This document shows, piece after piece, positions 6,661-28,029 of a DNA stretch of 64,000 nucleotides. Each line of letters opens with the position of its first letter. The stretch's first letter is position 1. Below the pieces are notes generated by a model. It worked only from the letters and a program-made list of their open reading frames with translations. It made no database searches and had not been told where the DNA came from. The DNA lies in assembly GCA_963728565.1 (NCBI GenBank), contig CAVSLC010000023.1, positions 256,001-320,000 on the forward strand, written 5' to 3'. The stretch is from an uncultured delta proteobacterium (GTDB lineage Bacteria; Desulfobacterota; Binatia; UBA9968). A program made the translations under genes and the position numbers.

Positions 6661-6898
6661 CCCAAATTCCGACGTCGAATTAAAAATGCCGGAAGCGAGG
6701 TGGAATCCTGGAGCAGCGAAGGCGTCCGACTGTGAAGTTTAAGAGTTATTTTGCGCTCTCGAACGTCGTTGCGATGAGGCTTAAACATCCCTCAAATCAC
6801 CGCTGAGCGATCTCTGCTCAGAGGCAGAAACCCATTCGCCTTCGCTGCGGAAGGATTCTGCCTCGCGCTTCCTGTCAATCGCAATGCGGCATCCGGGT
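6661..6898 (+). ncRNA. ~240-nt dispersed structured element, copy 1 (candidate ncRNA/leader)
   Basis: Highly similar to 26093-26331. Nested complementary arms GAGGTGGAATCCT/AGGATTCTGCCTC and GCAGCGAAGGCG/CGCCTTCGCTGC, plus internal hairpin CTGAGC-gatctct-GCTCAG. The repeat is certain; RNA function is inferred. Confidence 0.55.
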
Positions 6899-19394: not shown

Positions 19395-19410
19395 TGGCAC
19401 TTCTCTTGCT
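19395..19410 (+). promoter_or_regulatory. Putative sigma54 promoter (near-perfect consensus)
   Basis: TGGCACTTCTCTTGCT, 45 nt upstream of ATG 19455. Confidence 0.8.
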
Positions 19411-22453: not shown

Positions 22454-22469
22454 TGGCATATCGGTTGCT
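22454..22469 (+). promoter_or_regulatory. Putative sigma54 promoter for the exporter operon
   Basis: TGGCATATCGGTTGCT; differs by one base from the site at 26059. Confidence 0.78.
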
Positions 22470-22550
22470 CTTCTCTAAGCCGTGACCCTGGTTGCGCTCG
22501 AAGTTTGCACAAACGCAACAACACTGGGTCGGTGCAGGAGGAGAGATAGT

Positions 22551-25029: not shown

Positions 25030-25754
25030 TGGCCGTGTTGGTAGCGGAGCAGATCGTTAAAATCTTCGGTCAGGGCGAGGGCCAAGTCGCCGCTTTGAAG
25101 GACGCCTACGTTTCCATCGAGGCGGGAGAGATGGTTGGCTTGATGGGGCCGAGTGGTTCGGGCAAGACGACGCTTCTGCGGGCTCTCTCATTAATCGATC
25201 CGCCGACCAGCGGTCAGATCACCATCGGTAATGAGCTGGTGTTTCAAGGCTCCCGAGTGCTGACGGATGATAGGCAGCTACGCCGCAGGCGCATGGGAAT
25301 CATCTTCCAGGCCTACAATCTCATTCCGTTTCTAACCTCAGTGGAAAACGTCGCGCTTGTGCTGACGCTCAACGGAATTTCGAGAAACGAGGCGTTGGCG
25401 CGCGCGCACAACTTGCTCAACCGCCTCGAACTGGGGCATCGTGCCGACACCTACCCAGCGACGCTTTCAGGCGGGGAGCAACAGCGGGTTGCCGTCGCCC
25501 GAGCTGTCATCAATGAGCCAGTGATGATTCTTGCGGATGAACCGACGGCAGCCCTCGACACCGAACGAGGCAAGGCGGTGATGGATCTGCTCCGGCTGCT
25601 TGGCCGCGTGCAGCGAGCAGCCGTGATCGTTGTGACACACGATGAAAGAATGATCGAAGGCTTTGATCGCATCTATCATATGATTGACGGCCGGATCACG
25701 AACCATCTGAGTTCGGCAGAGCGCCAAGCGACGGCGGATGAAATCCATGCGTGA
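25029..25754 (+). CDS. ABC transporter ATP-binding protein (LolD/MacB-like)
   Basis: [24 protein letters not shown] and VTHD motifs. Confidence 0.95.
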
Positions 25755-25880
25755 CTGGTTGTGGTTCATTGCATTTTCTCGCGCTGGGTGTTGCCTCGGC
25801 TGGCGGCGCCCGGTTCAATGGCCCACGTCCACGCGACCGCACGAAAAATAAAGCAAGCTAGCAAAGGGAAAGTGAAATGA
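25747..25880 (+). pseudogene. Decayed paralog of the 22054 microprotein (19-nt deletion; TGA codon is TCA)
   Basis: [10 protein letters not shown] then, after a frameshift, RWVLPRLAAPG-S(TCA 25815-25817)-MA, aligning codon for codon with RWVLPYLGVRT-TGA-MA. Confidence 0.7.
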
Positions 25881-26058
25881 AAAGTTCGCCTCAAAATCAT
25901 CAGAGCCAATCATACAGAGTCTAATGATGATTACGTGATCCGCGCCGCGAGAGGAAGGATTGAATCGTTCACTTCTTAATCTTGACAAACGGACGGAATC
26001 TTTTTTGTGTTCCTGACAATCTCGCCGTGGCCATCATTTATTAAGCAAGCGTTTCCAC

Positions 26059-26074
26059 TGGCATATCTGTTGCT
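26059..26074 (+). promoter_or_regulatory. Putative sigma54 promoter for the structured leader and YeeE operon
   Basis: TGGCATATCTGTTGCT; the predicted TSS (~26085) lies a few nt before the structured element. Confidence 0.8.
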
Positions 26075-26092
26075 CCAAGGCCTTAGTTAATG

Positions 26093-26331
26093 CCGGATTC
26101 CGCAGTCGAACTAAAGATGCCGCAAGCGAGGTGGAATCCTGGAGCAGCGAAGGCGTCCGACTGTGAAGTTTCAAAGTGTTTTTGCGCTCTCGCAGGTCGT
26201 TGCTATGAGGCTTAAACATCCCGCTTGAAGCACCGCTGAGCGATCTCTGCTCAGAGGTAGAAACCCATCGACTTCGCTGCGGAAGGATTGTGCCTCGCGC
26301 TTTCTGTCAATCGCAACTGCGGAATCCGGGT
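26093..26331 (+). ncRNA. ~240-nt structured element, copy 2 (candidate ncRNA or 5' leader)
   Basis: Perfect 14-bp terminal stem CCGGATTCCGCAGT (26093-26106)/ACTGCGGAATCCGG (26316-26329), same inner stems as copy 1; ends about 10 nt before the AGGAGGAG RBS. Confidence 0.6.
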
Positions 26332-26353
26332 TGATTCGAAAGGAGGAGAACAA

Positions 26354-26818
26354 ATGAAAAGGACAGGTTGGATCATAATGATCACAGTATTCGCGGTGAT
26401 CTTCAGTGTGGCGAATTCTTTCGCGCAGCAAGGACCCGGAACCATGTGGCGCGGCAGCGGCGGATGGGGGCAAGGAAGCCAGTACAACAAGATGTACGAT
26501 CCGAAGGCGGTGGAAACGATTAGCGGGGAAGTAACCAACGTGGATCGTATTACGCCGGCCAAAGGGATGAGCGGTGGACTTCACATGAGTGTGAAGACCG
26601 ACAAGGAGACGATCTCCGTTCATCTGGGTCCGAGCTGGTATCTTGAAAACCAGGACGTCAAGATCGAAGCGAAAGACAAAGTCGAAGTGAAGGGCGCGAG
26701 GACCACTTTTGCAGGCAAACCGGCGATCATCGCGGCGGAAGTGAAGAAGGGCGATGAAGTTTTGAAATTGCGTGACGACAACGGCTTTCCTGTGTGGAGC
26801 GGTTGGCGCAGGCATTAG
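26354..26818 (+). CDS. Secreted OB-fold protein (MamS/MamX-like domain family)
   Basis: Signal peptide, Gly-rich linker, MYDPKAVETISGEV...VHLGPSWYL...KVEVKG...LRDDNGFPVWSG. Confidence 0.7.
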   Translation: MKRTGWIIMITVFAVIFSVANSFAQQGPGTMWRGSGGWGQGSQYNKMYDPKAVETISGEVTNVDRITPAKGMSGGLHMSVKTDKETISVHLGPSWYLENQDVKIEAKDKVEVKGARTTFAGKPAIIAAEVKKGDEVLKLRDDNGFPVWSGWRRH

Positions 26819-26917
26819 TTTCGACGCAACCCTTGATTCGCACGGTTTTGGTCGGCGGCTGTTTGGAACGGAAAAGCTCTCCCACCGCCGGTTCGCTGAC
26901 ACTGGGAGGAAACAGCT

Positions 26918-27439
26918 ATGGATTGGCTACGTAGAGAAGAGTGGCCCTGGTGGCAGGCGGGTTTATTACTCGGCCTGCTAAACATGGCGGCATTTTTCAC
27001 GGCGGACTATTACCTGTCGGTTTCGACGACTTTCTCGCGCGCCGCGGCAATGGTGGTTGGACTGGTCGCACCGGAGCATGTGGCGGCAAACGCATACTGG
27101 CAGAAGGTTAAGCCGATAGTCGATTGGCAATTCATGCTTGTTCTGGGAATTCCACTCGGCGCCTATCTGGCCGCGCGACTGAGTCAAAAACCCGTCGAGT
27201 TCACCGGATCGCTTCCCGATATGTGGGTCAGCCGATTCGGTACGAGCAATGCGCAGCGTTGGGTTGTCGGTATATTGGGCGGTATTTTCGTCGGTTTCGG
27301 TGCGCGCCTGGCCGATGGCTGAACCAGCGGCCACGCTCTCAGTGGAGGGCTTCAAATGGCCGTGAGCAGTTGGATCTTTCTGATCGCGATGATGATCTCG
27401 GGCACGATCATGGCGCGGCTAATTTTCCGGAGGGTGTAG
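26918..27439 (+). CDS. YeeE/YedE (PmpA-like) sulfur/selenium transporter-family protein, predicted selenoprotein (TGA 27320-27322)
   Basis: GARLADG-TGA-TSGHALSGGLQMAVSSWIFLIAMMISG...RRV-TAG. The family motif is GARxAxGCTSGH, and readthrough restores the last TM helix and ends 2 nt before the next ATG. Confidence 0.9.
27328..27362 (+). promoter_or_regulatory. Bacterial SECIS-like hairpin for TGA 27320
   Basis: CGGCCA-c-GCTCTC[AGTG]GAGGGC-ttcaaa-TGGCCG; GU in the apical loop, 18-nt spacer from UGA. Confidence 0.75.
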
Positions 27440-27441
27440 CT

Positions 27442-28029
27442 ATGGGTCCATTAGAAATTACCGGTCCAGCGCGTCTTGCGCTCGGACTCGCAACCGGAAT
27501 TCTCTTCGGTTTCATTTTACAAAAGGCACAGGTCACCCAGTATCAAAAGATCGTGTCTTTCTTTCGTTGGAGCGACCTGACTGTCCAGAAAGTCATGTTC
27601 GCGGCGATACTCGTCGGTATGGTCGGGGTGTATGCGCTGCATGATCTTGGTTTGGTCAATCTTCACATCAAGCCGACCTTGCTTGGCGCCAATATCCTTG
27701 GCGGCCTGATTTTCGGCATCGGCATGTTGCTCTTGGGCTTTTGACCCGGCACCTGTGCTGCGGCCTTCGGCGAAGGCCGTTTAGATGGTTTGTTTCGCGG
27801 CGTTCTGGGCATTTTGATCGGCGCGGGTATTTACTCGGAAATCTATCCGTTGATTCAGGATAATCTTCTTAAGCTCGGCGATTTCGGTAAATTGACCATT
27901 CCAACCGTCCTAGGGGTCAATCCATGGTTCGTGATCATACCGTTTACGATCATCGTCAGCGGAATTCTCCTGTGGATGGACCAGATTGATAAGCGAAAGA
28001 CGAGTAACGCAAGAGAGTTAACACGATAA
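27442..28029 (+). CDS. YeeE/YedE (PmpB-like) protein, predicted selenoprotein (TGA 27742-27744)
   Basis: GGLIFGIGMLLLGF-TGA-PGTCAAAFGEGRLDG. The family motif is GxCPGT, and the downstream ORF 27790-28029 is in the same frame. Confidence 0.9.
27760..27780 (+). promoter_or_regulatory. Bacterial SECIS-like hairpin for TGA 27742
   Basis: GCGGCCTTC[GGC]GAAGGCCGT; G-first loop, 24-nt spacer from UGA. Confidence 0.65.

Follow-up and report, generated by a model that had tools for sequence, protein, structure and literature searches.

The strongly paired stretch at positions 26092-26330 of the window, by which we mean the whole 64,000-nucleotide piece of DNA analysed here, is, as we judge (probability about 0.93), one of the copies of a miniature inverted-repeat transposable element (MITE) and sits as an insertion in the leader of a sigma54 operon; an IS1380-family DDE transposase acting in trans would have mobilised it. 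Its multiple copies, terminal repeats, target-site duplications and empty orthologous site together identify it as a MITE, and the extensive pairing is a property of the transposon family, rather than of this locus. An earlier note had proposed a novel non-coding RNA or regulatory leader, or alternatively a domesticated MITE. The first proposal is contradicted by the many copies with target-site duplications and by the absence of the element in five relatives; the second holds as far as the MITE is concerned, domestication being unlikely. The features of the window to which we refer are the following.

26059-26074, + strand: -24/-12 (sigma54-type) promoter motif TGGCATATCTGTTGCT, outside the mobile element
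26087-26091, no strand: left target-site duplication TTAAT, which fits the family target TTNAA
26092-26330, + strand: MITE copy, 239 bp, non-coding, with a long hairpin fold; delimited by the multi-copy family boundaries and the fold
26092-26106, + strand: left terminal inverted repeat GCCGGATTCCGCAGT, first base G as against C in the family consensus
26316-26330, + strand: right terminal inverted repeat ACTGCGGAATCCGGG, same as the consensus
26331-26335, no strand: right target-site duplication TTGAT, 1 difference from the left copy, at the variable middle base
26341-26818, + strand: Shine-Dalgarno sequence AGGAGG (26341-26346) and the operon's first gene (ATG at 26354, to 26818), 154 aa, secreted OB-fold-like; leader interrupted
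26918-27439, + strand: YeeE/YedE-type (Sulf_transp) half-size membrane protein, PF04143 at 2.2e-14; in-frame TGA at 27320-27322, motif DG-U-TSGH
27436-28029, + strand: second YeeE/YedE-type half protein, PF04143 at 2.1e-8; in-frame TGA at 27742-27744, motif GF-U-PGT
6661-6897, + strand: second MITE copy in the window, 90% identical, ends degraded

Promoter, operon and predicted fold

With three occurrences in the window, at 19395, 22454 and 26059 and each time on the + strand, the pattern TGGCAYN5TTGCW exceeds the 0.10 expected, and 0 of 100 shuffles reach three; the call of a -24/-12 promoter is therefore reasonable. This excess and the presence of a like motif before the orthologous gene in five relatives uphold the sigma54-type promoter that had been predicted ahead of the element. 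The other two perfect sigma54-type motifs occupy 19395-19410 and 22454-22469 (+); the one at 22454 (TGGCATATCGGTTGCT) is one base off the motif at 26059 and lies just upstream of HlyD-like and ABC transporter genes starting at 22482. From the usual geometry (~11-13 nt past the -12 GC), we take the start site to be near 26085. If this is so, the element begins at about +8 of the predicted transcript. The MITE was inserted 2-7 nt past the predicted sigma54 start, and the distance from the promoter TTGC to the first-gene ATG in the window is 280 nt.

The coordinates also bear out that the element is placed behind the promoter and ahead of the first gene's ribosome-binding site: its pairing extends to 26330, which leaves 11-12 nt to AGGAGG (26341-26346) and 23 nt to the ATG (26354). 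The protein of this first gene matched no Pfam family; a MamS-like match, at 5.9e-6, was weak and did not come near the cut-off. The two YeeE/YedE-type genes that follow overlap by 4 nt, and both in-frame TGAs stand at the conserved cysteine position of the family. Judged by these codons, both genes are candidate selenoproteins, and the name of selenoprotein operon under which the locus had been introduced would fit.

The perfect 14-bp terminal helix, the nested helices and the CTGAGC/GCTCAG hairpin described before our analysis are all present in the sequence and in the minimum-free-energy fold. Positions 26093-26106 are the exact reverse complement of 26316-26329, and the helices GCGAGGTGGAATCCT/AGGATTGTGCCTCGC and GCAGCGAAG/CTTCGCTGC and the hairpin CTGAGC-gatctct-GCTCAG all lie within that fold. 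For 26085-26345, the fold has -109.6 kcal/mol, compared with -85.8 +/- 4.9 for 200 dinucleotide shuffles (z -4.83; 0 of 200 as stable). The opposite strand of the element region folds nearly as well (-104.3 kcal/mol, z -5.52), so that the G-U pairs, which had been read as favouring RNA over a DNA inverted repeat, do not mark out an RNA of + polarity and are a weak sign of one. The two arms of the element are inverted copies of each other over ~75 nt, and this is true of every family member, at unrelated loci.

At gathering thresholds, Rfam gave 0 matches in the whole 64-kb window, and at E<=10 it gave a single chance-level match in 25900-26500, to a vertebrate lncRNA model (4.9 bits, E 3.9); neither scan gave a meaningful match to a known RNA family. 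The sole ORF starting inside the element (26090-26215, 41 aa) owes its ATG to the flank plus the mutated first base, and this ATG is absent from other copies. Neither sigma70-type promoter-like nor terminator-like sites were found in 25700-26500, and the idea that the element carries its own promoter or terminator was dropped for want of any such site in this interval.

Copies, target sites and orthologous leaders

A genome-wide BLAST search showed the element to be multi-copy. The genome holding the window (G000) is an assembly of 4.53 Mb in 28 contigs, 80.6% complete, and the element gave 26 matches in it, among them 12 near-full-length copies on other contigs (81-95% identity); with a profile HMM made from the copies, 33 distinct loci were recovered (E<=0.01). 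When the copies were aligned with 50-nt flanks, similarity started and stopped abruptly at CCCGG...CCGGG (CCCGGATTCCGCAGT ... ACTGCGGAATCCGGG), and these sharp boundaries set the limits of the element at 26092-26330, with the sigma54 motif outside. Compared with the 15-bp family consensus CCCGGATTCCGCAGT, the left end of this copy matches at 14 of 15 positions and the right end at all 15. At 6661-6897, the other copy in the window has CCCAAATTCCGAC... and ...AATGCGGCATCCGGG as its termini, and no matching 5-bp duplication can be seen beside it.

Genomic context was assessed for 28 of the 33 loci, five weak matches being left out, with genes called by a crude codon-usage scorer. All 28 are intergenic, and they are spread across 17 contigs: 16 lie between co-directional genes (element sense in 9, antisense in 7), 9 between convergent and 3 between divergent genes. 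The copy at 26092-26330 is the only one of the 28 with a sigma54 motif at <=300 nt. The near balance of orientations and this 1/28 frequency indicate that the MITE family has neither an orientation bias nor an association with promoters, and a preference of the family for sigma54 promoters was rejected on the latter count.

Certain copies depart from the usual form. Two identical copies (G000 C9:43579-43800 and C9:59336-59557) lie 15.7 kb apart, both without the first 15 nt and with a replacement flank in common, which suggests a larger segmental duplication or a composite structure; the junction of this pair is also found on a contig of soil run X1. At G000 C10:184892-184968, two inverted 15-mers resembling the terminal repeats have starts just 62 nt apart, and this may be a mini-derivative of the MITE of ~77 bp.

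Target-site duplications accompany the family both in this genome and elsewhere. Both termini are recognisable in 18 copies of the own genome: 7 of these have identical 5-nt flanks, 8 have one mismatch and 3 have more; the copy at 26092-26330, with TTAAT/TTGAT, is among the 8. A cross-genome scan, in which one genome per prokaryotic species was searched for two perfect termini 190-218 nt apart, yielded 46 further loci. Most of these come from MAGs with Candidatus Binatia or Deltaproteobacteria in the title, apart from two loci in a Chloroflexota-labelled MAG, one in an Aminicenantes-labelled MAG and one in a Udaeobacter-labelled MAG. Both flanks were available for 45 of the scan loci, of which 28 have perfect 5-bp duplications and 14 have duplications with one mismatch. 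The target in the 28 perfect duplications is TTNAA, T2 and A4 being invariant. Of the 40 relatives searched, 24 belong to the same family, and the MITE was found in 12 of these; it was found in 0 of the other 16, which represent two further families of the order.

The orthologous first gene was located in relatives by searching with 25760-27400. Five of them carry a promoter motif before the gene with a short spacer and no element.

G004, same genus, 96% identity: motif TGGCATAGGCGTTGCT, TTGC to ATG 36 nt, element absent
G014, same family: motif TGGCATGGCCGTTGCT, TTGC to ATG 41 nt, element absent
G010, same family: motif TGGCATACGCATTGCT, TTGC to ATG 49 nt, element absent
G022, same family: motif TGGTATGGCAATTGCG, TTGC to ATG 67 nt, element absent
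G019, same family: motif TGGTACAGACCTTGCG, TTGC to ATG 33 nt, element absent

Subtraction of 244 nt (the 239-bp element and one 5-bp duplication) from the 280-nt spacer in the window gives 36 nt. The empty site in the five relatives is an architectural one, read from promoter-to-ATG spacing, as the leaders are too diverged for base-for-base alignment; a 24-nt string of the left flank and a 27-nt string of the right flank, each searched for exactly in metagenome contigs, gave 0 hits, and a base-exact empty allele was thus not found. In a further genome of the same genus, G001, the upstream region and the 5' end of the first gene are wholly different. There, at about 1400-1520 of L020 (G001:C31), the orthologous first gene has neither promoter nor ribosome-binding site nor signal-peptide region left; ahead of its conserved part, the sequence is otherwise common to G001 and G004.

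Public sequencing runs containing parts of 25900-27300 were read as contigs. A DNA contig from soil run X1 spans the 3' junction (26262-26408, 2 differences); the insertion allele exists in this soil data set, and run X1 may be the assembly's own source. RNA-library contigs over the element have other flanks, which points to an origin in other MITE copies. The RNA-library contigs over the two downstream genes start at 26426, and their upstream part is the N-terminal sequence of a G004-like allele; none of the RNA-library contigs bridges the promoter-element junction.

A candidate parent and the proposed insertion history

A search of the genome with the 15-mer terminus revealed a solo left end at G000 C9:101240, which belongs to an insertion sequence (IS) of 1532 bp at C9:101240-102771 (locus L094, 949-2480). 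The ends of this IS, CCCGGATTCAGCAGT and ACTGCGGAAT--GGG, match the MITE termini at 14 of 15 positions; ATTAT stands on either side as a 5-bp duplication, and the insertion interrupts an oxidoreductase-like reading frame. One MITE subfamily has 16 consecutive terminal bases in common with the right end of the IS, and the similarity between IS and MITE is restricted to the terminal 15-21 nt. The transposase frame is broken into pieces of 119 aa and 319 aa, so this copy of the IS looks inactive. The 319-aa frame matches Pfam PF13701 at 1e-22 (80.4 bits, cut-off 34.7), and its best NCBIfam match is NF033539, 'IS1380 family transposase', at 7.8e-38 and 130 bits; this score is under the 180-bit cut-off because the fragment covers only profile positions 162-416 of 419.

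In a BLASTN search of the own genome (80.6% complete), the whole IS, the only one there with matching ends, found itself only and is thus single-copy, and no close transposase relatives were found at E<=1e-20 in the 40 relatives, which are fragmented MAGs in which ISs are often unassembled. In Table 2 of PMC3281130, IS1247 of the IS1380 family is listed as 1672 bp long, with inverted repeats of 16/13 bp and a direct repeat of 5 bp. The 5-bp duplication and ~15-bp ends of the MITE family agree with these values. The matching ends make an IS1380-family IS the likely source of the transposase for the MITE.

The history that we propose is as follows. An IS1380-family DDE transposase, supplied in trans, would have recognised the 15-bp ends of the MITE, and insertion at a TTNAA-like site would have duplicated 5 bp. 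The TTGC-to-ATG distance of the YeeE/YedE operon would thereby have been lengthened from ~36 to 280 nt. The operon would presumably still be transcribed from the sigma54 promoter through the element, and the mRNA would start with a very stable hairpin, the Shine-Dalgarno sequence staying unpaired as in the predicted fold.

The hairpin, its possible roles and known systems

Pairing of the arms was examined across the family in an alignment of 25 copies, 21 from the own genome and 4 from relatives. RNAalifold kept 24 arm pairs, 12 of them with compensatory changes. When the fold of the 26092-26330 copy was projected onto the alignment, 79.1% of cells were paired, compared with 35-42% when partners were slid by 1-3 columns; by region, pairing reached 87-92% in the outer helices and just 55-71% in the core. 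Both-sided changes occur in 37 of 83 pairs, whereas shuffles give 24.5 +/- 2.7 (37 is attained in 0 of 500); these figures derive from the structure of one aligned sequence and from related copies whose changes are not independent. In the aligned sequences, the arms co-vary between MITE subfamilies. The compensatory changes point to some constraint on the hairpin or on matched ends; matched arms are also expected if both ends must bind one transposase, and a structural role of the hairpin as single-stranded DNA or RNA is possible.

The + strand is the more stable one in 43 of 70 family copies, with a mean difference of 3 kcal/mol. A divergent subfamily (G000 C22:94359-94596, C13:484454-484694 and C7:24536-24776) differs from the rest in that one strand folds better by 23-34 kcal/mol. 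A strand-specific RNA function was considered and found no support in the near-equal fold of the minus strand, the 43/70 advantage of the + strand or the orientation of copies (9 sense, 7 antisense).

With its very stable and statistically unusual fold, its position exactly between a strong promoter motif and a ribosome-binding site, and an Rfam result that would allow for a new family, the element could be taken for a cis-regulatory leader or riboswitch dedicated to the YeeE/YedE operon, or for an independent sRNA gene read from the sigma54 promoter. We consider this extremely improbable, since the same sequence, bounded by transposon ends and target duplications, occurs in both orientations beside unrelated genes at 33 loci, and since it is absent from the orthologous leaders of five relatives and is without a terminator of its own. 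The element is not a ligand- or signal-responsive switch.

Less far-fetched, though still unlikely, is that the MITE has been domesticated and now serves as a functional 5' UTR module of the operon, either as a 5'-terminal hairpin acting against 5'-end-dependent decay or as a long duplex that is cut by RNase III and thus sets the mRNA level. The predicted fold would suit such a module in that it pairs the RNA from the second transcribed base on and leaves the Shine-Dalgarno sequence free. Read-through is plausible, 25700-26500 having no terminator-like site; the X1 DNA contig bridges the 3' junction, with the reservation that the run may be the assembly's own source; and arm pairing is kept by compensatory change across the family. 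MITE hairpins elsewhere in bacteria, such as the Correia elements of Neisseria and ERIC repeats, are generally known to alter mRNA stability, which also speaks for such a role. Against it, only this lineage carries the insertion (five relatives have the same operon without it), and the mutated first terminal base and mismatched duplication are as in a decaying insertion. The lack of orientation preference (9 sense, 7 antisense) and of sigma54 association (1/28) in the family, and a minus strand that folds nearly as well, likewise tell against domestication. With the element read as a MITE insertion, its effect on the operon would most likely be nil or a slight modulation by way of mRNA stability or processing.

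We speculate further, with little confidence, that the hairpin itself is under selection, as the covariation of arms between subfamilies might indicate, and that this copy has been co-opted as a 5'-terminal structure tuning the mRNA stability or RNase III processing of the sigma54 operon, the whole belonging to an undescribed, IS1380-derived MITE family of Binatia-type bacteria with a TTNAA target that mirrors the TTAA of piggyBac, a related eukaryotic transposon.

The value of the result lies mainly in correction: the striking 240-nt structure beside a promoter was left by a transposon and is neither a new riboswitch nor a new small RNA, and the copy at 6661-6897 and the others in the genome are to be read likewise as MITEs. 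The repeat is a likely source of assembly breaks and of false 'structured RNA' calls in these genomes. More modestly, a MITE family of Binatia-type bacteria, a largely uncultured group, is now defined by termini, TTNAA target and a candidate parent from the IS1380 family; the analysis also provides a natural case of a MITE at the extreme 5' end of a predicted sigma54 transcript, which can be used to ask how insertions alter expression.

Bacterial MITEs such as Correia of Neisseria, ERIC/IRU of enterobacteria and RUP of pneumococci are ~100-400 bp long and are often co-transcribed with their neighbours. The present family resembles bacterial MITEs in being small and non-coding, in its terminal inverted repeats and target-site duplications, in its dozens of intergenic copies and in its long hairpins; it differs from Correia, ERIC and RUP in its termini CCCGGATTCCGCAGT, its 5-bp TTNAA target and its apparent IS1380-family parent. 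No description of it was found in the accessible portions of the literature on IS1380 with MITEs or on Binatia with miniature inverted-repeats, and on that basis the family appears to be undescribed so far. With riboswitches and structured leaders, the element shares the promoter-to-RBS position and strong predicted structure, but it is absent at the orthologous site, recurs in either orientation at unrelated loci and has no Rfam match.

IS1380-family ISs are similar to the MITE in that its termini match those of a resident IS with IS1380-type transposase remnants, and in the 5-bp duplication and ~15-bp repeats; unlike them, the MITE lacks a transposase gene, and it is six times smaller. The long complementary arms of ~75 nt are a MITE feature and not an IS feature. 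According to PMC10813416, the eukaryotic transposon piggyBac targets the palindrome TTAA, which it duplicates on insertion, and IS1380 transposases serve as its prokaryotic outgroup. The MITE target TTNAA is this TTAA palindrome with one central base added. The terminal CCC of the MITE may also resemble piggyBac ends. In contrast to piggyBac, the MITE duplicates 5 bp and not 4, resides in a prokaryotic host and is a non-autonomous element.
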